NCBI GenBank assembly: GCA_017935905.1
Contig: JAGBGO010000010.1
Coordinates: 13,715-77,714 of the forward strand
Reading direction: 5' to 3'
Source: Clostridia bacterium
GTDB lineage: Bacteria > Bacillota > Clostridia > UBA1212 > UBA1255
DNA: 64,000 bases
Both the position numbers and the translations under genes were made by a program. Position 1 is the first letter of the stretch. Every line of letters begins with the position of its first letter. A model generated the notes under the pieces. It did not search any database and was not told where the DNA came from. It saw only the letters and a list, made by a program, of their open reading frames with translations. This document shows positions 19,522 to 46,740 of this stretch, one piece after another.

Positions 19522-21036
19522 ATGCAAAAAGAAGCAATCCGACTTACAGGAATAACCAAAACTTTTGGAAGTGTTGTGGCCAACCGGAACGTTCACTTGG
19601 AAGTTCGTCGGGGAGAAATCCTTGCACTTTTAGGTGAAAACGGTTCCGGTAAGACCACCTTGATGAATATGCTGTCGGGAATTTACCGTCCCGACAGCGG
19701 TTCTATTGAAATAAACGGAGTCCCTGTTGTTATTCAGTCTCCGGAAGATTCCAAAAGATTGGGCATTGGTATGATCCATCAGCATTTTAAGCTTGTGGAA
19801 GTTATGTCAGCTGCAGATAATATCCTTTTGGGATCAAATCAAGAAAAGAAAATTCTATCTGCTTCTCGGTTTGAGAAGGTAAAGGCCTTCTGTGAAGAAA
19901 TCGGCATGGAAGTGGACCCGAAGAAGAAAATTTATGATATGGCTGTTTCTGAAAAACAGACGGTAGAAATTATTAAAGTACTTTATCAAGGTGCAGATAT
20001 CTTGATTTTGGACGAGCCTACCGCTGTATTGACTCCCCAAGAAACGGAGCGTCTTTTTGATATTTTACGAAAGATGCGGGAGAAGGGTGCAGCCATTATT
20101 ATCATTACCCATAAATTAAACGAGGTTATGGCGGTCAGCGATCGCGTAACCATTTTACGCAAGGGCGAGAGTGTTGCCACAGTTGAAACGGCCAAAACAA
20201 CCATTAAGGAATTGACGGAATTGATGGTGGGTCACGCTGTTTCCCTTTCTATTGACCGACCGGATAACGATCATACGGGAACCCTCTTAAACGTACATCA
20301 TTTAAGCGTCTGCGATGAACACGGCGTGGAGCGTTTGAAAGACGTTTCTTTCGACTTAAACAGCGGGGAAATATTGGGCGTTGCCGGTGTTGCGGGAAGC
20401 GGTCAGAAAGAGCTTTGCGAGGCGATTGCAGGTCTTTTGCCCATTCATAAGGGTGCAATCCTCTTTAAGAAAGAAAATATCGAAGGCAAGTCGCCCCGTG
20501 AAATCATTAAAATTGGTATCGGTATGAGTTTCATTCCGGAAGATCGATTGGGTATGGGACTTGCGGCATCTTTAAGCATTACCGACAATATGATTCTAAA
20601 GAACTATCACAGGAGCAAAGGTCCTTTGGTAAACCGAAAGAAGGCTGCAAAACAAGCACAATCCGTGGTGGAACGCTATCAGGTTTCTACCCCCAGCATT
20701 CATACGGCGGTGCGGAAACTGTCCGGCGGTAACGTGCAAAAAGTCTTGTTAGGACGTGAGATTGACGCGGCCCCCAGTGTTTTGATTACCGCGTATGCTG
20801 TTCGCGGACTGGATATTCATTCTTCTTATATGATTTACGATGAAATCAATAAGCAAAAACAAAACGGCGTAGGCGTGCTGTTCGTAGGTGAAGATTTGGA
20901 CGTTATGCTGGAATTGTGTGACCGTGTACTGGTTTTGTGCCACGGTGAGATTACCGGTATCGTAGACGCAAAGACGACCACCAAGGAAACGTTAGGCTTG
21001 TTAATGACCGGTGCAGAAGGGGAGGCGAAAGCATGA
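19522..21036 (+). CDS. ABC transporter ATP-binding protein with duplicated ATPase domains
   Basis: Two Walker A sites (GENGSGKTT and GVAGSGQKE) and the LSGG signature. Confidence 0.8.
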   Translation: MQKEAIRLTGITKTFGSVVANRNVHLEVRRGEILALLGENGSGKTTLMNMLSGIYRPDSGSIEINGVPVVIQSPEDSKRLGIGMIHQHFKLVEVMSAADNILLGSNQEKKILSASRFEKVKAFCEEIGMEVDPKKKIYDMAVSEKQTVEIIKVLYQGADILILDEPTAVLTPQETERLFDILRKMREKGAAIIIITHKLNEVMAVSDRVTILRKGESVATVETAKTTIKELTELMVGHAVSLSIDRPDNDHTGTLLNVHHLSVCDEHGVERLKDVSFDLNSGEILGVAGVAGSGQKELCEAIAGLLPIHKGAILFKKENIEGKSPREIIKIGIGMSFIPEDRLGMGLAASLSITDNMILKNYHRSKGPLVNRKKAAKQAQSVVERYQVSTPSIHTAVRKLSGGNVQKVLLGREIDAAPSVLITAYAVRGLDIHSSYMIYDEINKQKQNGVGVLFVGEDLDVMLELCDRVLVLCHGEITGIVDAKTTTKETLGLLMTGAEGEAKA

Positions 21037-24466: not shown

Positions 24467-24553
24467 GCTGATGTGGCGAAATCGGCAGACGCAAAGGACT
24501 TAAAATCCTTCGGGGGCAACTCCGTACCGGTTCAAGTCCGGTCATCAGCACCA
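24467..24553 (+). tRNA. tRNA-Leu (anticodon UAA), class II with long variable arm, CCA encoded
   Basis: Hand-folded cloverleaf. Acceptor GCUGAUG pairs with CAUCAGC, the anticodon stem is AAGGA/UCCUU with loop CUUAAAA, the variable arm is a hairpin, the T-arm is ACCGG-UUCAAGU-CCGGU, and discriminator A is followed by CCA. Length 87 nt. The ORF 24422..24637 in the track is therefore spurious. Confidence 0.85.
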
Positions 24554-25281: not shown

Positions 25282-25316
25282 AAAAAAGTCCTGTTCGAAA
25301 GAACAGGACTTTTTTC
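25282..25316 (+). terminator. Rho-independent terminator (bidirectional-looking)
   Basis: Stem GTCCTGTTC/GAACAGGAC with loop GAAA, an A-run upstream and a T-run downstream. Confidence 0.7.
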
Positions 25317-25500
25317 AACTAAATCCACCCTAACGAGTGGGTGAAATATTGCTTCGCAATGTGAAATTCTCGCTTCGCTCGAGTGAAATCGCTGCGGCGG
25401 TGGGTGGATTTAATTTCACATTTTGCGTTAGCAAAATATTTCACCAAAGGCGAAAGCCTTTGATTTCACCGTGAGCAAAGCGAACGCTTTCACTAAAATC

Positions 25501-33731: not shown

Positions 33732-33737
33732 ATTTTC

Positions 33738-33904
33738 GTCCGCTGGGGGCGCAGATCGCTGAGATGAAGCAATCCGCCTGACTGGATTGTTCGGTCCCCT
33801 GGAACCTGTGTAGTTAATCCTACCGTAGGGAAGCGGCGCTCTGATTTCCCGTCAGTTTCGCGTACAGATTCCTCGGACAATAATTTGTTGTCGGAGGATT
33901 TTTT
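33738..33904 (+). promoter_or_regulatory. TPP (THI-box) riboswitch with intrinsic-terminator expression platform
   Basis: Aptamer landmarks CUGGGGGCGC...GCUGAGA...CCCCUGGAACCUG...CUACCGUAGGGAAG. A terminator hairpin CCUCGGACAA...UUGUCGGAGG plus a U-run ends directly at the ATG and sequesters the SD. Confidence 0.8.
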
Positions 33905-34633
33905 ATGCTCAAAATTTTCAACACATTTATTAAAGACGGCTCCGTAAACTTAGTGGATGCATTTAAGGAACATTGGCTGTTCTTTTTATGCTGGATTGTA
34001 GGTTTGATTGCCCTGTGTTTTATCCTTTATTTTGCAGTAAAAGCGGTAAACCGCAAACTACATCCCGAAACCGAGACTGCATCGGTTGTTCAGGTCGGCA
34101 AGAAGAAATTATTTGATACGAAGACCCTTGTAATGGGTTCATTGTGTTTGGGGCTTGCATTTATTCTTTCGTTTATTAAATTATGGGAAATGCCCCAGGG
34201 CGGCTCGATTACCCTTGCAAGCGCACTGCCGATTATTTTATTTGGCTATATTTACGGTTGGAAACCGGGGTTCGTAGTTGCGTTTGCGTACTCGCTCCTG
34301 CAGATGATTCAATCTCCGGGATATGTAATGAACGTACCCCAAGCACTTTTGGATTACGTGGTTGCTTTCACCATTCTCGGCATCGCCGGTTGTTTTCGAA
34401 AGAATATCTTCTTAGGTACCGTCAGTGCTTACGTGCTTCGTTATTTTGCCCACGTTGGAGCGGGATTACTTTGGTATCAGCAGTACAACGCAACTTCCTT
34501 TAGCGGCACGGCTTACTGCTTCCTTTACAATTTGGTGTTCCTGCTTCCTGAATTGTGCATATGCTTGATCATACTGGCGGTTCCCAACGTACGAAAACTG
34601 ATTCGTCAGCTGCAGATTAAGGCTGGTAAATAG
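33905..34633 (+). CDS. Probable thiamine / thiamine-precursor transporter (ECF S-component-like membrane protein)
   Basis: Six-TM protein immediately downstream of the TPP riboswitch. Confidence 0.55.
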   Translation: MLKIFNTFIKDGSVNLVDAFKEHWLFFLCWIVGLIALCFILYFAVKAVNRKLHPETETASVVQVGKKKLFDTKTLVMGSLCLGLAFILSFIKLWEMPQGGSITLASALPIILFGYIYGWKPGFVVAFAYSLLQMIQSPGYVMNVPQALLDYVVAFTILGIAGCFRKNIFLGTVSAYVLRYFAHVGAGLLWYQQYNATSFSGTAYCFLYNLVFLLPELCICLIILAVPNVRKLIRQLQIKAGK

Positions 34634-34749: not shown

Positions 34750-35868
34750 TTGATTTATATGGACAATGCCGCTACCAGTTATCCAAAGCCTTCTGTGGTA
34801 TTGGATGCTTTGTGGGAGGCTGTAGAGCGATGCGGTAATCCCGGAAGAGGCGCACACAGTTTATCCGTTTGGGCAGGGGAAAAAGTGTTGGAAACCAGGG
34901 AGAACATTGCTCGTTTGTTTCATGTTCAAGATGCTTCCCGCATTGCTTTTACCCAAAATGCCACCCACGCCCTCAATATTGCGGTGCATTTATGTTATGG
35001 CGAAATATTGACTACGTCCATGGATCATAATTCTGTACTGCGTCCATGTGCAAAAAGAGGGTATTATCGAATCGTTTCCGGGGATTACAACGGGCATCTT
35101 TCTCCGGATCAAATTGTTTCTGCCATCGGCGATATGACAGGCGCTGTGATTATGACCCACGCATCAAACGTAACCGGTGAAATTTACGAGATCGAACCCA
35201 TTGCCAAAGCTTGCAGAAAACGGGGGATTTTATTTATATTAGACTGTGCCCAAAGTGCCGGTACCGTTGATTTGAATTTGGAAAAAGTACCGGCGGATAT
35301 TGTATGCATCACCGGTCATAAAGGATTATTTGGACTTCAAGGAACAGGTGCCGTTTACGTAGCACCCCACGTGCCCATAAGCCCTTTTATGAGCGGCGGT
35401 ACAGGAACAAATACCTTTGATTTAACACATCCAAACCAAATGCCGGAATGTTTTGAAGCCGGTACGGTGAACACCCATGGTATTGCTACTTTATGCGCCG
35501 GGGTGGAATACGTGCTGGACTGTGGTATTTCTGCAATTCGTAAGAAAGAAAGCGCGCTTAGATCGTATTTTCAGCAGGAACTCGTGAAAATTCCGGGCGT
35601 TACAATATACGGCGACGGATCCAATTGTGCATATACCGGTGTGTTATCCATCAATGTTCTCGGAAAAGATCCCGGTATGCTGGCCAATTATCTTGCTTCC
35701 AAAGAAATCTGCGTTCGTGCCGGCTTTCATTGTGCACCGCTTGCCCATGATACAATCGGAACCAAATCACTGGGCGGTACGGTGCGTTTCTCCTTAAATC
35801 ATTTGAACACAGTAGATGAAATTGACGTGGTGATCTCCTATATAAAAGAATTTTGTAAAAATCTTTGA
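34750..35868 (+). CDS. Class V aminotransferase-fold PLP enzyme (cysteine desulfurase family)
   Basis: Carries the HKGLFG lysine motif. The probable start is TTG 34750, 8 nt after GGAGG; the alternative is ATG 34759. Confidence 0.7.
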   Translation: MIYMDNAATSYPKPSVVLDALWEAVERCGNPGRGAHSLSVWAGEKVLETRENIARLFHVQDASRIAFTQNATHALNIAVHLCYGEILTTSMDHNSVLRPCAKRGYYRIVSGDYNGHLSPDQIVSAIGDMTGAVIMTHASNVTGEIYEIEPIAKACRKRGILFILDCAQSAGTVDLNLEKVPADIVCITGHKGLFGLQGTGAVYVAPHVPISPFMSGGTGTNTFDLTHPNQMPECFEAGTVNTHGIATLCAGVEYVLDCGISAIRKKESALRSYFQQELVKIPGVTIYGDGSNCAYTGVLSINVLGKDPGMLANYLASKEICVRAGFHCAPLAHDTIGTKSLGGTVRFSLNHLNTVDEIDVVISYIKEFCKNL

Positions 35869-35886
35869 AAATTCACTTTTTCCCAC

Positions 35887-35915
35887 TTTACAAAAAAATA
35901 CAGGTGTGGTATAAT
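35887..35915 (+). promoter_or_regulatory. Extended -10 promoter for tRNA-Pro (TTTACA-17-TGgTATAAT)
   Basis: Positioned 14 nt upstream of the tRNA 5' end. Confidence 0.5.
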
Positions 35916-35928
35916 CGCAAAGCGCTTT

Positions 35929-36006
35929 CGGGGTGTAGCTCAGTTTGGCTAGAGTGCTTGCTTGGGGTGCAAGAGGTCGCCTGTTCAAGTCAGGTCACTC
36001 CGACCA
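35929..36006 (+). tRNA. tRNA-Pro (anticodon GGG), CCA encoded
   Basis: Hand-folded. The C1-G72 acceptor CGGGGUG/CACUCCG is typical of bacterial tRNA-Pro. The D-arm is GCUC...GAGU, the anticodon stem CUUGC/GCAAG with loop UUGGGGU, and the T-arm GCCUG-UUCAAGU-CAGGU. Confidence 0.8.
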
Positions 36007-36016
36007 GCCGTAAGAA

Positions 36017-36050
36017 GCCCAAGAGGATTTCTCCTTTTGGGCTTTTTCTT
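36017..36050 (+). terminator. Rho-independent terminator after tRNA-Pro
   Basis: 11-bp stem GCCCAAGAGGA/TCCTTTTGGGC with loop TTTC, followed by a T-run. Confidence 0.7.
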
Positions 36051-36083
36051 TTGATAAAATGCGCAGGGGAAGGATTTCTATTT

Positions 36084-36962
36084 ATGAATTTAATTGCGGA
36101 TCAATGGAAAGATTATGAAATATTAGACGCGGGGGACGGTATGAAGCTAGAGCGTTGGGGAGACGTTATTCTTTCCAGACCGGATCCGCAAGTGATATGG
36201 AAGCCGGTTCGCCCGGATTTGTGGAAGAAGGCCCACGCTGTATACAGCAGAAGCCATTCCGGCGGCGGTAACTGGACGTACAAACGGGATTTTCCTAAGA
36301 ATTGGAAGATTCGTTATGATTGCTTGCAATTTCACATAGAACCTATGGGATTTAAACACACCGGTTTATTCCCGGAGCAAGCCGCCAATTGGGCGTGGAT
36401 GCGCAAACAAATTCAAGCGCGCATTCAAAAGGGTGGCACGGTGAACGTGCTAAATCTTTTTGGCTATACCGGCGGTGCTACCGTGGCTTGTGCACAAGCC
36501 GGTGCTAAGGTTTGTCACGTAGACGCATCCAAAGGTATGGTTCAAAGAGCCAGTGAGAACGTAGCCTTGTCCGGTTTGCAGGATCGTGAAGTTCGTTATA
36601 TTGTAGACGATGCGTTCAAGTTTGTAGCCCGGGAAATCAAACGCGGGCACCATTATGACGGTATTATTATGGATCCGCCTTCTTACGGAAGAGGTCCCAA
36701 TGGAGAAGTGTGGAAGTTGGAAGATAATTTGTATGCATTCGTAGAGGATGCCATGTCGTTGTTATCGGATCAGCCTTTATTCTTTTTATTGAATTCTTAC
36801 ACCACCGGTTTTTCTCCAACAGTTACCGGCAATATTCTTCGTATGACTGCACCGGCGCATACGGGACGGATTGAAAGCGGGGATTTGTTAATTCCCATTA
36901 CGTCTATGCCTGATACTTATTTACCCTGCGGTTCCTACGCTGCCTTAATCGGGGAGGCCTGA
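36084..36962 (+). CDS. Class I SAM-dependent RNA methyltransferase (RlmI/YwbD-like)
   Basis: Start at ATG 36084 with RBS AGGGGAAGGA. The track ORF 35865.. runs through the tRNA and terminator and is an artefact. Confidence 0.65.
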   Translation: MNLIADQWKDYEILDAGDGMKLERWGDVILSRPDPQVIWKPVRPDLWKKAHAVYSRSHSGGGNWTYKRDFPKNWKIRYDCLQFHIEPMGFKHTGLFPEQAANWAWMRKQIQARIQKGGTVNVLNLFGYTGGATVACAQAGAKVCHVDASKGMVQRASENVALSGLQDREVRYIVDDAFKFVAREIKRGHHYDGIIMDPPSYGRGPNGEVWKLEDNLYAFVEDAMSLLSDQPLFFLLNSYTTGFSPTVTGNILRMTAPAHTGRIESGDLLIPITSMPDTYLPCGSYAALIGEA

Positions 36963-37692: not shown

Positions 37693-38846
37693 TTGCAACC
37701 ACCGCTTTTGGTTTGGAAGGCGTGGCTGCCAGGGAGTTATCCTGGTTAGGCGTTGAAAATGCCCGTACGGAAAACGGACGCGTTCGTTTTACCGGTGGTT
37801 TCAATACAGTTGCTCGTGCCAATCTTTGGCTTCGTACGGCAGATCGTGTACTAATCTCTTTGGCGGAAGGGGAGGTTCACACTTTTGAAGAACTCTTTCA
37901 ATTGGTGCGGCGTATTCCTTGGGAGAACTTTCTGCCGGAAAATGCTTGCTTTCCGGTTACCGGAAAATCGGTAAAATCAGTGCTGCACAGCGTGCCGGAT
38001 TGCCAAGCCATTACTAAAAAAGCGATTGTGGAACGGTTAAAGCAGTCTTACCCGGTAGATTGGTTTCCGGAAGACGGTCCTTTGTTCAAAATTGAAGTAT
38101 CTATTTTGAACGACTACGCTATGATCACGTTGGACACCTCCGGTGCGGGATTGCATAAGCGGGGATACCGAAAGGATTCTATTAAAGCACCGATTAAGGA
38201 AACGTTGGCTGCCGGTATGCTTTTAATCAGTCATTGGAAGAAAGACCGGGCACTGCTGGATCCTTTTTGCGGAAGCGGCACCATTCCCATTGAAGCGGCT
38301 ATGATTGCCCGGAATATTGCCCCGGGACTGCAACGTACTTTTTTATATGAAACGTGGCCGTGTGTACCGAAAGGCACACGAGAAACAGCACAAAAAGAGG
38401 CTGAATCTAAGATCGACTATGATATTACACTTCGTATTTCGGCTTCCGATATTGACTATTTTGCCGTGAAACAAGCAAAAGAAAATGCGCAGATTGCCGG
38501 TGTTTTGGATGATATTACCTTTCAAAAATTAGACTTTAAAGCAACGTCGTCACACTACAAATACGGATCTATCGTAACCAATCCGCCTTACGGTGAACGG
38601 CTAATGGAAGAGAAAGAAGCGGCGCGTTTATATAAAGATATGGGTGCGCATTTTAAGCATTTCGATACGTGGTCAGTTTATTTGATTACTTCTTTTGAAA
38701 AATTTGAAACTTGCTACGGACGTAAGGCCCATAAGAAGCGTAAACTTTATAATGGTATGCTGAAATGCAATTTGTATCAATATTTCGGTCCGAAACCGCC
38801 ACGGCAACCGATCGCATCCGGGATTGCAAATGAGGCGGAAGAATGA
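37677..38846 (+). CDS. THUMP-domain class I SAM-dependent RNA methyltransferase (RlmL/YpsC-like)
   Basis: THUMP N-terminus, the DPFCGSGT SAM motif and the NPPYG catalytic motif. Confidence 0.75.
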   Translation: MELQLIATTAFGLEGVAARELSWLGVENARTENGRVRFTGGFNTVARANLWLRTADRVLISLAEGEVHTFEELFQLVRRIPWENFLPENACFPVTGKSVKSVLHSVPDCQAITKKAIVERLKQSYPVDWFPEDGPLFKIEVSILNDYAMITLDTSGAGLHKRGYRKDSIKAPIKETLAAGMLLISHWKKDRALLDPFCGSGTIPIEAAMIARNIAPGLQRTFLYETWPCVPKGTRETAQKEAESKIDYDITLRISASDIDYFAVKQAKENAQIAGVLDDITFQKLDFKATSSHYKYGSIVTNPPYGERLMEEKEAARLYKDMGAHFKHFDTWSVYLITSFEKFETCYGRKAHKKRKLYNGMLKCNLYQYFGPKPPRQPIASGIANEAEE

Positions 38847-38893
38847 TATAATGGCAATAATCTTGTAATGATTTTTACATGGGGGTCATTTTT

Positions 38894-39307
38894 ATGAAAA
38901 GAGTTGGTTTTAAGGGTATTGTAAGTCTTCTTATGGTGGCTTGTTGTGTATTTACGTTATTTGCTTGCAAAGGTAAGTCGGATGAGCCTATCAATAAGCC
39001 TCAGGAAACGGCCACACCGAGTTCTACGCCGATGGGCACAAAAGGTCCCAGACCGGAGGTTACGTTACCGGAGGATGAATTCTTACCGGAAGAAACACCC
39101 GTTGCATCTGCTACGGTAACACCTACGCAAGCGCCTACAGATCATCATTCGCCTGCAGCAACTACACCTGCTGCTACCGAGCAGCCTACCGCTCCGGCCA
39201 CGAAGACACCTACGGCTACACCAAACAAAACTGCTACACCTACCAAGAAACCCACTGCAACGCCGAAGCCTTCCGGTGGTATTATGCTTCCGCCTGATTA
39301 TCTTTAA
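38894..39307 (+). CDS. Small Pro/Thr/Ala-rich lipoprotein (about 137 aa) with no globular domain
   Basis: ATG 38894 has GGGGG 8 nt upstream. Lipobox LFAC, then about 100 aa of TPxxPT-type low-complexity sequence ending in GGIMLPPDYL. It lies 18 nt upstream of the kinase gene. Confidence 0.6.
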   Translation: MKRVGFKGIVSLLMVACCVFTLFACKGKSDEPINKPQETATPSSTPMGTKGPRPEVTLPEDEFLPEETPVASATVTPTQAPTDHHSPAATTPAATEQPTAPATKTPTATPNKTATPTKKPTATPKPSGGIMLPPDYL

Positions 39308-39325
39308 CATGGAGGAAGTGAACGT

Positions 39326-40048
39326 TTGAACGCATTTTTTAAATTGGCAGATCTTGTCGTAGCTGCTACATTTCAATATGAATATTTGCTTAAACAATGT
39401 AAGGATTACGTCGTCCGGCGTCCTTTATCTGTTGATATGGAAATATCTGTAAGTTCTGAGGATATTGCGAAAGAACGTGCTAAAGATAACAACGGCGGCT
39501 TTTCTAACGGATATATAGAAAGCTTGGCTTTTTACCGAAAGTTTGCGGAGCAAGCGGCTGCTTTTGACTGCATCTTGTTTCATGGATCTGCTTTGAGTGT
39601 GGATGGAGAAGGCTATTTGTTTGGTGCGCCTTCCGGCACCGGCAAGTCAACCCACAGCGCTTTGTATCGCAGACAGTTTGGCGATCGTGTTGAAATGGTC
39701 AACGACGATAAGCCGCTTTTAAGAAGAATGAATGGCGGCTTCTACGTTTACGGAACCCCTTGGGACGGTAAACATCACCTGAGCCAAAATATATCTGTTC
39801 CGTTAAGAGGAATTTGTTTTCTTCAGCAAGGTCCAATAAATGAAATTCGGAAATTGACCTTTTTTGAAGCAATTGGTGCATCCCTTGGTCAAATATACCG
39901 GCCGGAAGATAAAGAGGCATTGTCAAAAGTCCTGCATTTTACACAAGGAATGTTACAGTCCGTACCTGTTTTTGAATTGAAATGTACGATATCCAACGAG
40001 GCGGCAGAACTATCCTACCGCACGATGAAAGGAGCCTATAACGTATGA
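39326..40048 (+). CDS. HprK-related serine kinase (HPr kinase C-terminal-domain fold, P-loop GAPSGTGKST)
   Basis: TTG start with GGAGG 10 nt upstream. The P-loop matches the GxSGxGKS of HPr kinase/phosphorylase, a fold that is also used by the kinases in lasso-peptide clusters. Confidence 0.7.
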   Translation: MNAFFKLADLVVAATFQYEYLLKQCKDYVVRRPLSVDMEISVSSEDIAKERAKDNNGGFSNGYIESLAFYRKFAEQAAAFDCILFHGSALSVDGEGYLFGAPSGTGKSTHSALYRRQFGDRVEMVNDDKPLLRRMNGGFYVYGTPWDGKHHLSQNISVPLRGICFLQQGPINEIRKLTFFEAIGASLGQIYRPEDKEALSKVLHFTQGMLQSVPVFELKCTISNEAAELSYRTMKGAYNV

Positions 40049-40308
40049 AATTGAAAGATGGTGTTATTATTTCTCAAGTGGAGAATGAATACGTAGCTGT
40101 ATTTGCCGGTGAAGCCGGGAAGGCTTGCAGCGGTATGATGCGTATGAATAAAGTATCTGCTTTTATTATGGAACGGTTGCAGCAAGAAACTGACGAAGCA
40201 CAGTTGGTCGCAGCACTTTTGGAACGGTATGAAGTTTCGGAAGAAGACGCCAGAAAAAGCGTACTTTTTGTCATTGATCAAGTGAATAAGGCTGGTATTA
40301 TGGCATGA
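40045..40308 (+). CDS. PqqD-family RiPP recognition element / peptide chaperone
   Basis: 87 aa with the PqqD/RRE architecture (N-terminal beta strands, then a helical LLERYEVSEEDARKSVLFVIDQVNKAGI). Overlaps its neighbour by 4 nt (ATGA). Confidence 0.7.
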   Translation: MKLKDGVIISQVENEYVAVFAGEAGKACSGMMRMNKVSAFIMERLQQETDEAQLVAALLERYEVSEEDARKSVLFVIDQVNKAGIMA

Positions 40309-40769
40309 CAGACCCGGCAGCCATTTCCATGCAGCATGCGATTCATGAGATTGGTTTTGTTGTAAGGCCCGTTGTTGGAACGAGTATGATGCCGCTTTTG
40401 GATCAACAGACAGACACAGTTCGTTTGGTCAAAGCACCGGAGCGGCTTAAGAAATACGACGTGCCGCTCTACCGGCGTCCGGACGGAGAACTCGTATTGC
40501 ATCGCATAGTGAAAGTATGTGCTGATTATTATGTTATTCGCGGAGATAATACCAACTATACGGAAATTGTTCCATTTGATTGGGTCATTGCGCTTGCAGA
40601 CGGTTGTTCGAAAAATGGCGTATGGCATTCTTTTGACGAACCGGAAATGAAACGCTATGCGGTTCGTACAGTCCGTTTCTGGCGTATACGTAATTTTATT
40701 CGTGGCACGAAGAGCCGTATTCGAGGTGGTTTGCGCCGCGTGTTTCGTGCTTTTAGGAGGAAAACGTGA
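40305..40769 (+). CDS. S26B (ER/archaeal-type, SipW/Sec11-like) signal peptidase I using a Ser-His dyad
   Basis: Box B is GTSMMPLL with the catalytic Ser. Box C ELVLHRIVKV has His where the P-type enzymes have the catalytic Lys (compare Sec11 PIVHRV). Box D is GDNTNYTE. Confidence 0.65.
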   Translation: MTDPAAISMQHAIHEIGFVVRPVVGTSMMPLLDQQTDTVRLVKAPERLKKYDVPLYRRPDGELVLHRIVKVCADYYVIRGDNTNYTEIVPFDWVIALADGCSKNGVWHSFDEPEMKRYAVRTVRFWRIRNFIRGTKSRIRGGLRRVFRAFRRKT

Positions 40770-41902
40770 ATAAACTGGAGTATTTATTAGACATATCTGA
40801 CTATTTTGTCGCTTTCGTTCGCGTGGCGGTTACAGGTGTGCCTGAAAATATTTCTCTTCCAAAGGATTTTAACTGGGAAGCGCTTTATTCCTTAGCGGAA
40901 AGACATAAACTTACGGCGGCTGTGTGGCGTGGAATTCAATTAACCGGGTTCAAAGTCCTTCCGGCATCGCTTTCGGAAAAATGGTTCGTTCGAACACAAC
41001 AAATACTTAGCAAATCCATTCGGTTTGATCACGAGATCAGCCGGATTCAAACGCTGTTTGATCAGTACGGAATCGACTATATTATAATTAAAGGCGTGAC
41101 ATTACAAAAGTATTGGCCGGAGAAAGGTCTTCGGGAGTTTTCTGATCACGACATCTTGATTCGGGAGGAACAGCGGGAAAGTGCACGTGATATTATGTTG
41201 TCTTTAGGTTATACCAATTCGCATTTTGGTAGTGTTCACGATGTATATCAAAAAGAACCGATTTACAACGTGGAAATCCACGTTGGATTATTTGAATCGG
41301 ATTTCGCATATTCAGATTATTTTACGCATATATGGGATCGTGCTGTACCGGTTTTGGATAATTCTCACCAATTTCAATTGACACGAATTGATTTTTATTT
41401 ATATTTTTTATTTCATTTTGCGAAACATGCCCAGTGCAGCGGCAGTGGCGTGCGATTTTATACAGATTTGTTTCTTCTGCGGAAGCAACTTTCTTTTACA
41501 CCGGAGGAAGAAGAAAACGTGAACCGTGTTCTTGTGCAGTATGGTCAGTTTGATCAGATTCAAAAGATCTATGCGAACTTGGACTATTTGTTCAGCCATA
41601 ATGGTGAAATGTCTTCTCAAACCAAGGAACTTATCTTTTCCGGCAGTACGTATGGAAGTCATACGCACCGTATTTACAATTCTATGCGGGCAAACGGAAA
41701 ATGGAAATACGTATTTGCCCGTCTTTTTCCGCCTCGTAAGGTGTTGATCAATCGCTTTAAAATATTGCGTCCTATGCCTTTTCTATTACCCTTTGTATGG
41801 ATTTATCGGTTGATTCATCACTTGTTTAGCGATTTTCATCGCCGGCGTATTCAAACGGAAATCCGCGACGTCCGACGTTTTTCGGATAAAGAGGTGAAGT
41901 GA
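40766..41902 (+). CDS. Nucleotidyltransferase-family protein (uncharacterised NTP_transf_5/PF14907-like)
   Basis: 378 aa. The architecture matches the uncharacterised nucleotidyltransferases seen next to PqqD and HprK-like genes. Confidence 0.55.
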   Translation: MNKLEYLLDISDYFVAFVRVAVTGVPENISLPKDFNWEALYSLAERHKLTAAVWRGIQLTGFKVLPASLSEKWFVRTQQILSKSIRFDHEISRIQTLFDQYGIDYIIIKGVTLQKYWPEKGLREFSDHDILIREEQRESARDIMLSLGYTNSHFGSVHDVYQKEPIYNVEIHVGLFESDFAYSDYFTHIWDRAVPVLDNSHQFQLTRIDFYLYFLFHFAKHAQCSGSGVRFYTDLFLLRKQLSFTPEEEENVNRVLVQYGQFDQIQKIYANLDYLFSHNGEMSSQTKELIFSGSTYGSHTHRIYNSMRANGKWKYVFARLFPPRKVLINRFKILRPMPFLLPFVWIYRLIHHLFSDFHRRRIQTEIRDVRRFSDKEVK

Positions 41903-43305
41903 TGAATTTTGCAAATTTATTCTTTATCTACGCCTTTTTACCGGCCGTATTACTGCTTTATTATGTAATTCCCAATATTCATTATCGCAATGGTGTATTG
42001 CTTTTGGCATCTCTCGTTTTCTATGCGTGGGGAAGCCCGGTTATGCTTTTGCTTCTTTTGGCGGTTTGTGTGGTGAACTATTTTCTTGGAAGAGGCATCG
42101 GCAAAGCACCGGGGGAGAAGAAGGGGAAAGTCTGCCTTGTAATTGGGTTGATTCTCAATATCGGCTTATTATTTGGATATAAATATTTGGCATTTTTCTT
42201 GGATACGATTAGTCTGATTCCCGGATTGCACGTGTCTGTCTGTAAATTTGCTATGCCTTTGGGGCTTAGCTTCTTCACTTTCAGAATTATATCTTACCTT
42301 TTGGACGTGTACTGGGAGAAAGTGAAAGCAGAGCGTTCTTTTCCTTTGTTTTTATTGTTTGTTTCCCTGTTTCCCTGCACGGTAGCCGGCCCCATTGTGC
42401 GTTATCAAACGATTGGGGAAAGTCTTCGTGTTCGCAGAGCCTCTTGGTCCGATTTGTACGTGGGATTTATGCGTCTGAGTGTAGGTTTAGGTAAGAAAGT
42501 GATTCTTGCGGACCATTTGTATGGTATTACGGAATATTACTTTTCAGGGAATCTTCGCAGTCTTACCGTTACGGAAGCATGGTTTGCTTTGCTGGTTTAT
42601 GCCTTGTATGTCTATTTTGACTTTTCCGGGTATTCGGATATGGCTATCGGTATAGCACGTATGTTTGGATTCCGATTCGAAGAGAATTTCCGCTATCCCT
42701 TTGTTTGTACGACAATCTCCGAATTTTGGCAAAGATGGCATATTTCATTGGGTTCTTTTTTTCGTGATTATTTATTGTACGTACCGATTTTTGGAAAAAT
42801 GCGCATATACGGAGGCTTGTTCTTAGTATGGTTTTCCACAGGGTTATGGCATGGTGCCTCTTGGAATTATGTAATATGGGGCCTGTATTTTGGTCTGTTT
42901 ATTTTACTTGAAACGAAGATCGGCAAGAAACGCATGAAGAAAATCCCGAAATTGATTCGACATTTTTATACAAAAATCGTAATTATATTAGGATTTGGAA
43001 TATTCTATTTTACGGATCTTGGTCGTATGGGAACCTTTTTCAAAAGCTTGTTCGGTTTGTCCGGAAATCAATTTGTTGATACATTTTCATCTACGTATAT
43101 GATGAATAATTTAATTTTGGTGTTGTTGGGTTTGATTTGTATCTTTCCCTGGGTTCCGTTCTTTCAAAAAAAACTGGAGAAAAGAAGCTGGACACTTGGC
43201 ATTGCCCAATGTGTTTGCGGTATTCTTTTACTTGCACTTTTTGTTTTTGCCAGTATAATTTTAGTGAACAGTACGAATCAACCGTTCCTATATACGCAAT
43301 TTTAA
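41899..43305 (+). CDS. MBOAT-family membrane O-acyltransferase (DltB/AlgI-like)
   Basis: 468 aa, polytopic, with the conserved His region WHGASWNY that corresponds to the MBOAT catalytic histidine. Confidence 0.8.
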   Translation: MMNFANLFFIYAFLPAVLLLYYVIPNIHYRNGVLLLASLVFYAWGSPVMLLLLLAVCVVNYFLGRGIGKAPGEKKGKVCLVIGLILNIGLLFGYKYLAFFLDTISLIPGLHVSVCKFAMPLGLSFFTFRIISYLLDVYWEKVKAERSFPLFLLFVSLFPCTVAGPIVRYQTIGESLRVRRASWSDLYVGFMRLSVGLGKKVILADHLYGITEYYFSGNLRSLTVTEAWFALLVYALYVYFDFSGYSDMAIGIARMFGFRFEENFRYPFVCTTISEFWQRWHISLGSFFRDYLLYVPIFGKMRIYGGLFLVWFSTGLWHGASWNYVIWGLYFGLFILLETKIGKKRMKKIPKLIRHFYTKIVIILGFGIFYFTDLGRMGTFFKSLFGLSGNQFVDTFSSTYMMNNLILVLLGLICIFPWVPFFQKKLEKRSWTLGIAQCVCGILLLALFVFASIILVNSTNQPFLYTQF

Positions 43306-43317
43306 AGAGGTGAGACC

Positions 43318-44676
43318 GTGGACAAGGAAACGAAGTTTCAAACAAAAAATCAAAATCGCTTTTTGCATGCAATTCGTATTGTGATCGTATGCCTGTTTTT
43401 GGTTGTTCTTTTGTCCGGTGCCGTGCTTTTGATTGTCTTGGATCGACCCACGTATTCGCAGGATGAAAAGCGCGTACTTGCCAAGAAACCTGCATTTACT
43501 TTTTCGTCTCTCCTCCGGGGTGAGTATACGGAGGATTTGCAATATTACTACAATGATACGATTCCGTACCGTTCTGTTTTTAAGCGATTTTCCGACAAAA
43601 TGATGAGTTATAAGGGTATTGCCCAAGATGATTTCTATATTGATATTCCAAAGGATCTTCCTTCTTTTCCGCCGGAGGAATCATCTGTTCCTACGCCGAT
43701 TCTTCCTACGCCGGATGGGAGCGGCAGCGCAGCTCCGGATGCTACAAACGTTCCGTCTGTCACTTTGGCACCCACTAAACCGAATGTAAATGAATTTACC
43801 CAGAATCAGGGTATTGTGACGTACCAAAAGCGTGCTATGGAATTGTATTGGGGCAGTAAAGCGTCTATGCGAGAGTATGCATTGTCTTTGAATACACTTT
43901 ATACAAGAAAGCCGGATTTGAATATTTGGTCCATGAATATTCCCACTGCTTCTGCGTACTATTTGCCGCCGTCCCTTGCCGGAAAATACGGCGATCAAGC
44001 CCAGGATTGTGCCTATATTCGCAGTTTGCTTCATCCGGATATCCACTACGTTGACGTGTATAACGTTCTTAAAAAACACACTCAAGAAGATATTTATTTG
44101 CGCACGGACCATCATTGGTCTTATTTGGGCGTTTTCTATGCCGTAGAAGAAATGATGAAACAAGGGGATTTGGCTGTGCCAAATTTGAAAAAGGATTACA
44201 CCACCAAGTCCAAGGATGGTAATTTAGGCTCATTCTATTTGTATTTTGACCAAAAGCATTTGGTGAATTATCCCGAAACGTTTACTTGGTATGAACCTAA
44301 ATTTTCTTTTGATGCTGCTTATTACAGTTATGACACAATGGAAGTGGTGCGAACCAGTAAGAATAAGATGTTTTTCTACTATTCCGAGCCGTTTTACGAT
44401 ATGGTTAATTATGGAGATTCATATCTCGCCCATATCCAAACGGAAAATCAAACGGGAAGACGCCTGGCGGTTTTCAAAGACAGTTTTGGCAATGCGTTAG
44501 CACCTTTTTTGGCGAAAGGATTTGATGAAATTTGGGTGATCGACCTTCGCTATTATAAGGGGGACGCCTACGCATTTCTGGAGGAAAAGGGAATTACGGA
44601 CGTCTTGATGGCTTCTTGTATGTTTACCAACGCAGGGTACAAATCTGTATACTATAAGAATTTATTTGTTTCTTGA
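43318..44676 (+). CDS. DHHW-family protein (AlgX/AlgJ/DltD-like SGNH partner of MBOAT)
   Basis: N-terminal TM anchor and the signature YLRTDHHWS. Confidence 0.75.
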   Translation: MDKETKFQTKNQNRFLHAIRIVIVCLFLVVLLSGAVLLIVLDRPTYSQDEKRVLAKKPAFTFSSLLRGEYTEDLQYYYNDTIPYRSVFKRFSDKMMSYKGIAQDDFYIDIPKDLPSFPPEESSVPTPILPTPDGSGSAAPDATNVPSVTLAPTKPNVNEFTQNQGIVTYQKRAMELYWGSKASMREYALSLNTLYTRKPDLNIWSMNIPTASAYYLPPSLAGKYGDQAQDCAYIRSLLHPDIHYVDVYNVLKKHTQEDIYLRTDHHWSYLGVFYAVEEMMKQGDLAVPNLKKDYTTKSKDGNLGSFYLYFDQKHLVNYPETFTWYEPKFSFDAAYYSYDTMEVVRTSKNKMFFYYSEPFYDMVNYGDSYLAHIQTENQTGRRLAVFKDSFGNALAPFLAKGFDEIWVIDLRYYKGDAYAFLEEKGITDVLMASCMFTNAGYKSVYYKNLFVS

Positions 44677-44687
44677 AAGGATTTCTC

Positions 44688-46469
44688 ATGAAAGAATTAC
44701 TTTATCCCTTTGACAGCGATTGGATTATGAAGAATCGCCGAAAGATTAAGAAGCGCCTTTTAGAGGATGGAACGACTCGGATTTCAAAGCGTATTGCGGT
44801 GTTGGGCGGTTCCACCACCCATGATATCATCCAAGTTTTGGAATTGTTTTTGCTAAATGAAGGCATTCAACCAACGTTTTACGAATCCGAATACGGACAG
44901 TTTTATCAAGATGGTATGTTTGGAAACGACGCGCTGGACCGGTTTGCCCCGGATTTAATTTTTATTCATACCACGAGCCGCAATTTAGATGCTGCGTATC
45001 CTATGGTTCAAGATACAAAAGATGCTGTCTCACAGCGGATTGCGGATCAAATGCATCTGTATACCCGTCTTTGGGACAATTTATCCAATAAATTTCACTG
45101 TACCATTATTCAAAACAACTTTGAATTTCCGGCATACCGTACTTTCGGCAATCAAGACTGTGTAGACCCATGCGGCCGCGTGCATTTTGTGCAAGCACTC
45201 AATCAAGGTTTCGCGGCGTACGCTGAAAGCCACTCGGATTTTTATATCCACGACATTCAATATTTGTCTGCTATGTACGGACTGGAAAAATGGTCCCAGC
45301 CTTTTTACTGGTATATGTACAAATATGCGTTATCATTTTCTGCCATTCCGTTTTTTGCATCCAGTTTGTGCCAGATGATTAAATCGGTATTCGGCAAGAA
45401 TAAGAAAGCTCTTGCTTTGGATCTGGACAATACGCTGTGGGGCGGTGTCATCGGGGATGACGGTGTAGACGGCATCGAAATCGGCCAAGAAACGGCGTTG
45501 GGACAAAGCTATTCAGAATTTCAAAACTATTTGCGTGCACTCAAAGATAAGGGCATTCTGCTGACGGTTTGTTCTAAAAATGAACCTGACAATGCGATGC
45601 TTGGATTAAATCATCCTTCCGGTGTGCTAAAGCCGGAGGATTTCACCGTGATTAAAGCCAATTGGGAAGCAAAATCGGAAAATGTGCGCTCTATTGCAAA
45701 AGAATTAAATATTTTACCGGACAGTATTGTTTTTGTAGATGATAATCCCGCTGAACGGGAAATTGTTCGTACGTATTCAGAGGGGGTATCTGTTCCGGAA
45801 CTGGGAGACGTAGACAGTTATATTTCGATTCTGGAAAGAAACGGTTTTTTTGAAGTCACTGCTTTTTCGGAGGACGATCTGAAACGCAATGCCATGTATC
45901 GGGAGAACGCATTAAGAGCCCAGGCCGAGCAATCTTTCACGGATTACCAAGCCTATCTGGAAAGTCTTGAAATGCAGGCGGTAATTCGTGATTTTGAACC
46001 TGTGTATTTACCGCGAATTACGCAACTGACCAATAAAAGCAATCAATTCAATTTAACCACGAAACGATATACGGAATCGGAAATGCGTGCAGTCGCAGAG
46101 GATGATGCTTATATTCGCTTGTACGGACAATTGAAGGACCGATTTGGGGACAATGGAATCGTTTCAGTTGTGATCGGTCGTAAAATGGGTGGCATACTGC
46201 ACGTGGATTTGTGGTTGATGAGTTGTCGCGTTCTGAAAAGAAATATGGAACTTGCGATGTTGGATACTTTAGTGTTACAATGTAAGAAGGAAGGCATCGA
46301 AGAAATCTACGGATATTATTATCCAACGCAAAAGAATAATATGGTGCGATACTTATACCGGGATTTTGGTTTTGATTTGGTTTCGGAAGACGAGCACGGA
46401 AACAGTGTTTGGCGTCTTTCCGTTGCCGGATACCGGAATCAAAATTCCGTGATTACCGTAGAAGAATAA
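44688..46469 (+). CDS. FkbH-like HAD-IIIC phosphatase-domain protein with C-terminal GNAT-like acyltransferase fold
   Basis: HAD motif I is LDLDNTLWGGVIGDDG. ATG 44688 (RBS AAAGGA) is preferred over the TTG at 44673. Confidence 0.7.
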   Translation: MKELLYPFDSDWIMKNRRKIKKRLLEDGTTRISKRIAVLGGSTTHDIIQVLELFLLNEGIQPTFYESEYGQFYQDGMFGNDALDRFAPDLIFIHTTSRNLDAAYPMVQDTKDAVSQRIADQMHLYTRLWDNLSNKFHCTIIQNNFEFPAYRTFGNQDCVDPCGRVHFVQALNQGFAAYAESHSDFYIHDIQYLSAMYGLEKWSQPFYWYMYKYALSFSAIPFFASSLCQMIKSVFGKNKKALALDLDNTLWGGVIGDDGVDGIEIGQETALGQSYSEFQNYLRALKDKGILLTVCSKNEPDNAMLGLNHPSGVLKPEDFTVIKANWEAKSENVRSIAKELNILPDSIVFVDDNPAEREIVRTYSEGVSVPELGDVDSYISILERNGFFEVTAFSEDDLKRNAMYRENALRAQAEQSFTDYQAYLESLEMQAVIRDFEPVYLPRITQLTNKSNQFNLTTKRYTESEMRAVAEDDAYIRLYGQLKDRFGDNGIVSVVIGRKMGGILHVDLWLMSCRVLKRNMELAMLDTLVLQCKKEGIEEIYGYYYPTQKNNMVRYLYRDFGFDLVSEDEHGNSVWRLSVAGYRNQNSVITVEE

Positions 46470-46488
46470 AAATTAAGGAGTTACAAAT

Positions 46489-46740
46489 ATGCTTACAGAG
46501 AAAGACGTATATGAACGGCTGAATGAAGTGTTTCGGGACGTTTTTGATGACGACGGAATTTGTGTGGGAGCAGAGACGACCGCCGCAGATATTGAAGACT
46601 GGGACAGTTTGGAACATATTCGTTTGATTGCTGCCGTTGAACAGGAATTTTCCATTCGTTTTAAAATGGGTGAAGTTGCTTCTATGAAGAACGTAGGGGA
46701 GATGGCAACCATTATTTTATCGCGCATTTCCAACGCATAA
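46489..46740 (+). CDS. Acyl carrier protein (DltC-like)
   Basis: 83 aa. The phosphopantetheine serine lies in DWDSLEHIRL. Confidence 0.75.
   Translation: MLTEKDVYERLNEVFRDVFDDDGICVGAETTAADIEDWDSLEHIRLIAAVEQEFSIRFKMGEVASMKNVGEMATIILSRISNA

Follow-up and report, generated by a model that had tools for sequence, protein, structure and literature searches.

A probable composite operon in uncultured gut Clostridia combines LPP-like peptide-modification genes with an acyl carrier protein-linked MBOAT-DHHW cassette

Linear polyphosphorylated peptides (LPPs) are peptides made by ribosomes and modified after translation (RiPPs), encoded by the lppAKBSDN cluster of Paenibacillus alginolyticus (Popov et al., Nat Commun, May 2026, PMC13381572). 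The precursor LppA contains the leader motif YxxPxVLxHQxIxFETxxS, and LppK polyphosphorylates Ser3 of the core. LppS (WP_029196374.1), a SipW-like peptidase with catalytic residues S29, H68, and D93, cuts after F-3, E-2, and T-1, and does so only when the RiPP recognition element (RRE) LppB presents the precursor. No activity was detected for LppN, and its describers speculate that a partner is encoded outside the core cluster. LPP clusters are often found within capsular-polysaccharide or other envelope-polysaccharide loci (PMC13381572). The 2026 description concerns Bacilli, and the accessible portions of its text and supplements contain no mention of Clostridia, lipoproteins, MBOAT, DHHW, or FkbH (PMC13381572). 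The Clostridial branch of the family is very large, with more than 7,800 clusters of LPP-type kinases at 90% identity. Here, a relative of this machinery is described from contig JAGBGO010000010.1 of a Clostridia bacterium, where it shares an operon with an MBOAT acyl-transfer module. The stretch of that contig which was analyzed is 64 kb long and is called the window; all feature coordinates are window positions.

The closest described relatives of the acyl-transfer module are MBOAT/SGNH pathways. Apart from Dlt, for which alone a carrier protein has so far been described, these pathways use none and have a Tyr shuttle in a C-terminal FxYxxF motif on the MBOAT. DltB depends on the microprotein DltX instead of a fused shuttle (PMC12148441). 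In Bacillus cereus the DHHW-family protein PatB1 is known from the literature to O-acetylate the secondary cell-wall polysaccharide together with the MBOAT PatA1, and the Clostridial pair CcsH/CcsI is the predicted analogue of PatA1/PatB1. Both pairs have been described as acetyl-CoA-using and carrier-free. Enzymes of the FkbH family convert 1,3-bisphosphoglycerate to the glyceryl thioester of an acyl carrier protein (ACP), glyceryl-ACP (PMC7489565).

In the window, nine co-directional open reading frames (ORFs) on the + strand run from a lipoprotein gene to an ACP gene (38879-46740; Table 1). A preliminary description of this DNA, made from its letters alone, had placed the genes correctly and had assigned families to the eight that follow the lipoprotein gene. 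All eight assignments held: six are supported by profile searches, the kinase by a fold match of its AlphaFold2 (AF2) model, and the peptidase by a family profile. The operon is best read as a composite, in which an ordinary MBOAT-DHHW cassette for polymer O-acylation, fed by an ACP, shares a transcript with an LPP-derived set that has been retargeted to a tethered lipoprotein. We give this reading a probability of roughly 0.55. Elsewhere each cassette occurs on its own, and on this reading a single joining took place, in the ancestor of a lineage of uncultured gut Clostridia.

In domain set, gene order, and motifs, the first half of the operon matches the LPP machinery LppK/B/S/N, and its products are treated here as putative counterparts. 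As in P. alginolyticus, an HprK-like kinase, a discrete PqqD-type RRE, a SipW-like peptidase, and a PF14907-type nucleotidyltransferase (NTase) are encoded in the order K-B-S-N, and there is no macrolactam cyclase. The statement that this half had no assigned biochemical function has been overtaken by the 2026 characterization of LppK/B/S/N (PMC13381572). It had also been proposed, rightly, that this half resembles the accessory genes found with lasso peptides that are phosphorylated or glycosylated. The paeninodin, pseudomycoidin, and Bsf clusters share the HprK-like precursor kinase, a B1-type RRE, and the PF14907 nucleotidyltransferase, which has a role in pseudomycoidin according to the literature. 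The operon differs from these clusters in that it has neither an Asn-synthase-like cyclase nor a transglutaminase-like B2 peptidase, and encodes an S26-type leader peptidase instead.

The kinase gave only weak matches to curated hidden Markov models (HMMs), and its family name, ScmC, comes from precomputed annotation; literature searches for this family yielded nothing related. Its invariant residues H86, G104, G106, K107, S108, D127, and D128 (G104-T-G-K-S108 and D127-D128) agree with the lasso-peptide kinase motif H...GxGKS...DD (PMC10368454). Since a profile search against PDB sequences returned only P-loop noise and was uninformative, a fold search was used, in which the best matches of the AF2 model (pLDDT 93.9) were PEP carboxykinase (PEPCK) and HprK/P. 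The NCBIfam families HPr-rel-A and HprK_rel, which the preliminary description had named, do exist, but the window proteins fall below the cutoffs. Scores were 26.2 for ScmC (cutoff 125), 15.7 for HprK_rel_B (cutoff 200), 20.1 for PqqD_rel_X (cutoff 35), and 17.3 for ScmD (cutoff 100), and the HprK_rel_A model matched none of the window proteins. For the RRE, the nearest NCBIfam models were lasso PqqD chaperones, none of which it matched above cutoff. No other protein of the operon is as well conserved (77-92% identity within the lineage), and its conservation is on par with that of the flanking housekeeping genes.

The peptidase, whose gene overlaps the PqqD gene by 4 nt, had no Pfam match on its own and only weak matches to curated HMMs. 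A profile built from 30 family members matched signal peptidase I (4NV4, 7e-4) and SEC11A (5e-3). In that profile the invariant motifs G25-x-S27-M-x-P, H66-R67, and G80-D81-N82 align to bacterial signal peptidase I and to human SEC11A. Ser and His are 39 residues apart, exactly as S29 and H68 are in LppS. Nine of the 30 members have a Pfam S24 match and four an S26 match. The protein has no transmembrane segment and ends in a basic C-terminal tail.

To describe the relatives of this half, ORFs were clustered around 84 kinase loci, and features were counted in the 27 loci with enough flank. Stand-alone four-gene kinase cassettes were seen directly. Their recurrent order is small ORF(s) or precursor, kinase, PqqD, peptidase, MsbA-like ABC exporter (ABC_membrane and ABC_tran), and PF14907, which equals lppAKBSDN. 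The peptidase (S24) was present in 24/27 loci, the NTase in 21/27, the precursor in 18/27, and the exporter in 17/27, while an Asn-synthase-type cyclase was found near none of the 27. A leader HMM recovered about 45 small precursors from these relatives, one to five per locus, and none of them matched NCBIfam or Pfam. They have YxxP...F(E/D)x leaders with a conserved N-terminus, (M)xKY-x-x-P-x-M-E-V-I-x-F-E-x-E-D-V-I-T-T-S-G, and short, variable, mostly acidic C-termini. Compared with LppA, the YxxP-to-FET spacing is shorter, and a conserved EDVITTS block is present.

Some further features of these loci were observed. Up to five precursor genes stand in tandem, with one leader and differing short acidic cores (L111 9143-9900; L090-L169 loci). 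In Clostridial leaders the EDVITTS block is preceded by an F-E-T triplet, the same three residues as at the cleavage site mapped in LppA. About 3 kb 5' of the kinase gene, a secreted Transglut_core protein of about 600 aa is encoded in L154 (7999-9843) and in 25 other kinase-anchored loci. It differs from the small cytoplasmic lasso B2 peptidase and might process or cross-link exported peptides. Some cassettes of the LPP type are interrupted or scrambled: in L174 (9864-12346) two serine recombinase genes follow the kinase gene, and in L003 (11052-13445) the cassette genes are separated by one PD-(D/E)XK-like gene and another with a Fic domain. Both cases fit the mobility reported for LPP clusters.

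The window departs from this pattern in that lppA and lppD are missing. As the preliminary description had stated, the operon has neither a macrolactam synthetase nor a small precursor ORF, and the 64 kb as a whole contain no small leader-type precursor ORF. The leader HMM and regular expressions found no such precursor in the window or in the other fused loci. An LppD-like MsbA-type ABC exporter was likewise absent from the operon, the window, and every fused locus; a tblastn search with the exporter gave a single weak nucleotide-binding-domain match in the window (19585-20115), in an unrelated ORF. The precursor position is occupied by a tailed lipoprotein with a Sec/lipobox signal, and in the fused lineage the Sec/Lsp route would thus replace the ABC exporter.

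This lipoprotein, named earlier as the only obvious substrate candidate, is still the best one. Seven orthologs share 39-54% identity and range from 126 to 207 aa, with the length differences arising in a Pro/Thr-rich tether. Each consists of a signal peptide with lipobox, an island, the disordered tether, and a conserved tail. Only three elements are invariant: the lipobox Cys, the LPE(D/E)xF island, and the C-terminal G-x-x-L-P-P-D-x-(L/I). In all members of the lineage the gene lies 18-25 nt 5' of the kinase gene. Moreover, tails of the ELPF(V/I)PA(D/E) type are common to leader-type cores, such as ...GVINLPFVPTGK (L128) and ...DYELPFVPAD (L167), and to lipoproteins beside other ScmC cassettes, such as ...TIELPFVPAEGTE (L098), ...GPIELPEVP (L154), and ...AIELPFIPAD (L158). 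No leader peptide is encoded near the closest outgroup cassette (L175; 50% kinase identity), which is flanked instead by three lipoproteins ending in ...ITLPEDRFE, ...IIKLPADEFC, and ...TTPFDKFN. The cassette-adjacent lipoproteins follow one design, namely a lipobox, a long disordered acidic or Pro/Thr-rich tether, and a short tail. With a tail motif defined post hoc, such tails were counted on 12 of 84 lipobox ORFs in kinase (ScmC) loci and on 0 of 91 lipobox ORFs in FkbH-only control loci; the 12 represent about five independent lineages and one false positive. Given its conserved position, the restriction of invariance to tail, island, and lipobox, and the resemblance of the tail to LPP cores, the lipoprotein is a likely substrate of the LppK/B/S/N-like enzymes. 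LPP-type cassettes would then serve two substrate formats, leader peptides and tailed lipoproteins. Separately, the internal LPEDEF island was considered as an embedded LPP leader and rejected, as the seven lipoproteins score like shuffled sequences at inconsistent positions.

The second half of the operon had been likened to DltBCD with a different loader. This stands as far as a carrier-dependent MBOAT with an FkbH-like loader is concerned, but the shuttle is fused to the MBOAT and the partner is of the DHHW/PatB1 type rather than DltD. With Dlt (DltA, DltB, DltC, DltD, DltX) the operon shares a relay of small carrier protein, MBOAT, and extracytoplasmic SGNH-superfamily transferase. The loader is an FkbH-like protein with HAD and GNAT-fold domains where Dlt has an adenylating ligase, and no ORF with a DltA-type adenylation domain was found in the operon. 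The MBOAT, which scores 142.7 bits against the DltB model TIGR04091 (cutoff 375 bits), ends in ...PFLYTQF and thus has the FxYxxF acyl-shuttle motif at its extreme C-terminus, as do 74 of 76 complete FkbH-linked MBOATs. Since it holds the Tyr shuttle itself, a separate DltX is not required. In place of D-Ala, the group transferred is probably a hydroxyacyl.

The DHHW protein matches PDB 4NZK (1.9e-45) and B. cereus PatB1 (5V8D, 1.6e-15). It has an N-terminal membrane anchor with a Pro-rich linker and keeps the KDSF(G/A)NA serine block (KDSFGNA here) and the TDHHW block. The FxYxxF MBOAT and DHHW pair, with conserved Ser and DHHW blocks, is of the kind paired in PatA1/PatB1 and in the predicted CcsH/CcsI; unlike those systems, the operon encodes a dedicated ACP and an FkbH-like loader, which argues against a simple acyl-CoA donor. 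The FkbH-like protein scores 283.5 bits against TIGR01686, above the cutoff of 146.65 bits. It consists of an N-terminal FkbH_N domain and a HAD phosphatase domain, both matching PDB 3SLR, and a C-terminal domain whose GNAT fold, proposed earlier, was confirmed. Among its invariant residues are D250-x-D252-x-T254 (HAD DxDxT) and, in the C-terminal domain, C518, a putative equivalent of the OzmB catalytic Cys. With the FkbH/OzmB loaders of polyketide and tetronate pathways it shares the FkbH domain, the DxDxT motif, the invariant Cys, and an adjacent stand-alone ACP. It differs in its extra 3SLR-type N-terminal domain and in having no polyketide synthase, FabH-like, or dehydrogenase partner; a membrane acyltransferase apparently receives the ACP product. 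The ACP itself has a weak PP-binding match and matches ACP models at about 5e-6, below cutoff. By analogy with the FkbH family, the group loaded on it is probably glyceryl.

The cassette is thus a hybrid, because a PatA1/PatB1-type relay (fused FxYxxF MBOAT and DHHW partner) is combined with a dedicated ACP and an FkbH-type loader. Literature searches for earlier descriptions of an FkbH/ACP/MBOAT module returned nothing relevant, and the MBOAT-DHHW-FkbH-ACP architecture appears to be uncharacterized. Within the fused lineage the module looks ordinary. When fused members were compared with stand-alone ones, identity was 58% for FkbH and 66% for ACP, against 59% and 67% among stand-alone members. 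Moreover, one stand-alone FkbH-like protein (P0154) is 65% identical to that of the window, the same value as for a fused one. The sequences thus point to a donor side with no lineage-specific divergence. DHHW is the most divergent component everywhere (32% against 39%, with overlapping ranges). Module divergence was also considered as a sign of a new acceptor and proved uninformative, the donor side being unchanged and DHHW marginally more divergent within the normal range. In some cassettes, two to four DHHW paralogs stand in tandem (L048 5803-9982, L084 6665-9943, L065, L070, L056, L080, L083), which suggests several acceptors for one acyl donor.

Whether the two halves are linked elsewhere was examined in two censuses. 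The first was anchored on FkbH in species-representative genomes, where the best 80 of at least 570 relatives were analyzed (Oscillospiraceae, Lachnospiraceae, Ruminococcus, Christensenellaceae, Bacilli, Erysipelotrichaceae, and Synergistales). The second was anchored on the kinase (ScmC) in 80 metagenome contig loci. Kinase (ScmC), PqqD, or peptidase (S24) genes were found in 0/80 FkbH-anchored loci, and MBOAT, DHHW, FkbH, or ACP genes in 0/80 kinase-anchored loci. The idea of the preliminary description that the halves form a single pathway therefore loses its support from co-occurrence outside the window's own lineage. In the FkbH-anchored loci, an ACP gene lies at most 300 nt downstream of the FkbH gene in 68/80 and an MBOAT is present in 64/80; 27 loci have the order MBOAT-DHHW-FkbH-ACP and 27 the order FkbH-ACP...MBOAT. 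The latter (L018-L082, e.g., L023 10001-13584) contains another MBOAT clade, about 30% identical and ending in FIYxxF, and no DHHW homolog was detected in these loci by tblastn.

Among the loci sampled, none but close relatives of the window (kinase identity at least 57%) showed the full fusion. It is always located between rlmL and Asp23 and always starts with the lipoprotein gene, and none of the 80 loci represents a sister lineage with the MBOAT module at this site. The fused arrangement is present on at least six contigs, from genomes diverged past synonymous saturation. Within the lineage, synonymous divergence (pS) is saturated at 0.6-0.9, and nonsynonymous divergence (pN) is 0.03-0.45 across all nine genes. 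All nine genes are therefore under purifying selection past synonymous saturation, which means that the operon is maintained and its genes are functional. As the fusion is limited to one lineage and one chromosomal site and conserved past synonymous saturation, it is a single old event that was maintained, not a recurrent association.

In the composite reading, the first cassette derives from an LPP cluster whose leader-type precursor and ABC exporter were lost in this lineage. By analogy with LPP, the PqqD-like RRE would present the substrate, the HprK-like kinase would phosphorylate a hydroxyl residue, the SipW-like Ser/His peptidase would cleave the substrate, and the PF14907 transferase would add a further group. 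These enzymes would act on the adjacent lipoprotein before Sec export and lipidation, and the product would be a lipid-anchored disordered tether displaying an LPPD tail like those of LPP cores. In the second cassette, the FkbH-like enzyme would load the ACP, probably with glyceryl from 1,3-bisphosphoglycerate. The MBOAT would move the acyl group to its own C-terminal Tyr (FLYTQF), from which the DHHW serine transferase would hand it to an extracellular acceptor hydroxyl of a cell-envelope polymer.

Several points weigh against this interpretation. The assignment to P. alginolyticus LppK/B/S/N is one by domain set, gene order, and motifs. The lipoprotein has no YxxP-type leader and scores no better than shuffled sequence with the leader HMM, so its recognition by the RRE is unexplained. 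Cleavage by a cytoplasmic peptidase would, moreover, split the tail from the signal peptide. Several tails contain no Ser, Thr, or Tyr (e.g., GGLWLPPDDL in L172), and the tail itself is therefore not the phospho-acceptor. The tail motif was defined once the data had been seen, which makes the enrichment in kinase loci post hoc. As for the independence of the halves, the junction is tight: in the window, as in L170 and L172, the NTase and MBOAT genes share 4 nt or 1 nt. The survival of the fusion past synonymous saturation fits functional coupling equally well, and the neighboring acylation module could supply the partner speculated for LppN.

These last points lead to the alternative that survives best, an integrated pathway, which is nonetheless rather unlikely. 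Here the LppK- and LppN-like enzymes would phosphorylate and further decorate the lipoprotein in the cytoplasm. After export and anchoring it would be O-acylated outside (perhaps with glyceryl) by MBOAT-DHHW, or the attached group would be acylated, and the nine genes would make a single protein-directed system of envelope modification. The nine co-directional genes with gaps of at most 19 nt and the NTase/MBOAT overlap agree with this, as does the persistence of the arrangement on those six or more contigs. A Sec/lipobox-signal substrate in place of the lost exporter would also suit it, as would an LppN reported to be inactive without some partner and the frequent location of LPP clusters in envelope-polysaccharide loci. 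However, the halves are linked in 0/160 anchored loci outside the lineage, and 21/27 stand-alone cassettes have the NTase with no MBOAT module. The donor side shows no divergence particular to the lineage, with DHHW just slightly more divergent, and DHHW/PatB1-type enzymes have glycopolymers rather than proteins as their known acceptors. We consider unlikely a specific version of this pathway with a 'tethered LPP' as its product. In it, the LppK-like enzyme would phosphorylate the lipoprotein and the LppN-like one extend it, both before Sec export, and the ACP/FkbH-fed MBOAT-DHHW relay would then O-acylate it outside the cell. If true, this would give a first case of Dlt-like acylation directed at a protein, and the missing LppN partner would have been identified.

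It is improbable that a leader-type precursor is encoded elsewhere in the genome and that the lipoprotein is unrelated or accessory, for example an anchor, receptor, or immunity factor sharing the tail epitope. The precursor search covered 64 kb of the genome, and 9/27 well-flanked stand-alone cassettes likewise have no detectable precursor nearby. The undetectable leader and the tails lacking hydroxyl residues, which cannot be phospho-acceptors, agree with this explanation. Against it, neither the operon nor the window encodes a free-peptide exporter, the lipoprotein gene keeps its place 5' of the kinase gene throughout the lineage, and at least four further lineages have ScmC cassettes next to which a lipoprotein with a core-like tail is encoded. 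Least likely, and strongly disfavored, is decay, in which the downstream operon would carry the LPP-derived genes as a remnant that has no substrate. Precursor and exporter, the defining parts of a working LPP cluster, are indeed missing, but the four ORFs are intact in every lineage member, their catalytic residues are invariant, pN is far below saturated pS, and RRE conservation equals that of flanking housekeeping genes.

The composite reading, if confirmed, would describe a RiPP system that modifies a cell-surface lipoprotein, and LPP machinery with two substrate formats. A second carrier-dependent route beside Dlt may also exist: the MBOAT-DHHW-FkbH-ACP cassette occurs in no fewer than 570 species representatives, for the most part gut Clostridia and their relatives, and would decorate the envelopes of gut commensals with what is probably a hydroxyacyl (glyceryl) group. 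Two leads for experiments follow, namely LPP substrates in lipoprotein format and the possible second MBOAT/SGNH pathway that depends on a carrier protein. Moreover, the fused lineage is a natural test case for the link between LPP products and envelope-polymer modification that the LPP paper left open.

Table 1. Candidate promoter and genes of the nine-gene operon (window positions).
Feature	Position	Strand	Evidence or remark
Promoter-like site TTGCAA-17-TATAAT with upstream TG	38824..38852	+	Consensus scan, 10/12 matches
Lipoprotein ORF	38879..39307	+	Probable start 38894; signal peptide with lipobox Cys
LppK-like peptide kinase, HprK/PEPCK fold	39326..40048	+	Pfam PF27840 'ScmC'
LppB-like discrete RRE, PqqD family	40045..40308	+	PF05402, 1.3e-13
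LppS-like soluble Ser/His peptidase, SipW/SEC11 type (S26)	40305..40769	+	Family profile
LppN-like NTP-transferase	40766..41902	+	PF14907 (NTP_transf_5), 9.4e-42
MBOAT with fused C-terminal acyl-shuttle motif	41899..43305	+	PF03062, 1.5e-20
DHHW-family (PatB1-type, SGNH-like) predicted extracytoplasmic acyltransferase	43318..44676	+	PF14286, 1.5e-31
FkbH-like loader	44673..46469	+	Probable start 44688; TIGR01686, 2e-84
Dedicated ACP, DSL phosphopantetheine-attachment motif, 83 aa	46489..46740	+	PP-binding, 3.4e-4

From the lipoprotein gene to the ACP gene, the intergenic spacing is 18, -4, -4, -4, -4, 12, -4, and 19 nt. The tight packing with gaps of 20 nt or less that had been described is thus correct, but the overlaps are not all ATGA: two of the five read ATGA, two GTGA, and one TTGA. 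With an alternative MBOAT start, the ATG at 41902, the overlap with the NTase gene becomes a 1-nt TGATG. For the FkbH-like gene the later start listed in Table 1, an ATG used in orthologs, seems more likely, and the preceding gap would then be 11 nt. Most operon genes are preceded by Shine-Dalgarno-like sites. The promoter-like site just upstream of the lipoprotein gene is a likely candidate for the operon promoter, judged by pattern match only, and no terminator-like sites were found between the lipoprotein gene and the Asp23 gene. Both flanks consist of housekeeping genes: spoIIIA genes, a ThiT-like transporter, a cysteine desulfurase, and rRNA/tRNA-modification genes upstream, and Asp23, nusB, xseAB, ispA, and dxs downstream.

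Some RNA features were noted in the upstream part of the window. A thiamine pyrophosphate (TPP) riboswitch (33735-33848, +) lies directly 5' of the ThiT/YuaJ-type thiamine transporter gene (33905-34633). ORF 35865-36962, as called mechanically, takes in a tRNA-Pro(GGG) gene (35929-36006, +); its methyltransferase orthologs are 292 aa long, and its true start therefore lies 3' of the tRNA. Gut-1 RNA (RF01706), an orphan small RNA motif, is present at 25316-25394 (+) with 71 bits, above the gathering score. The DNA around it is low in GC (0.378 at 24-26 kb), ORFs of at least 150 aa are absent between 24.4 and 26.0 kb, and a tRNA-Leu(TAA) gene (24467-24553) stands just upstream of it. Across the window (1-64000), the real-looking ORFs of at least 150 aa all lie on the + strand, and the GC skew stays positive from end to end, which is consistent with a long leading-strand stretch.

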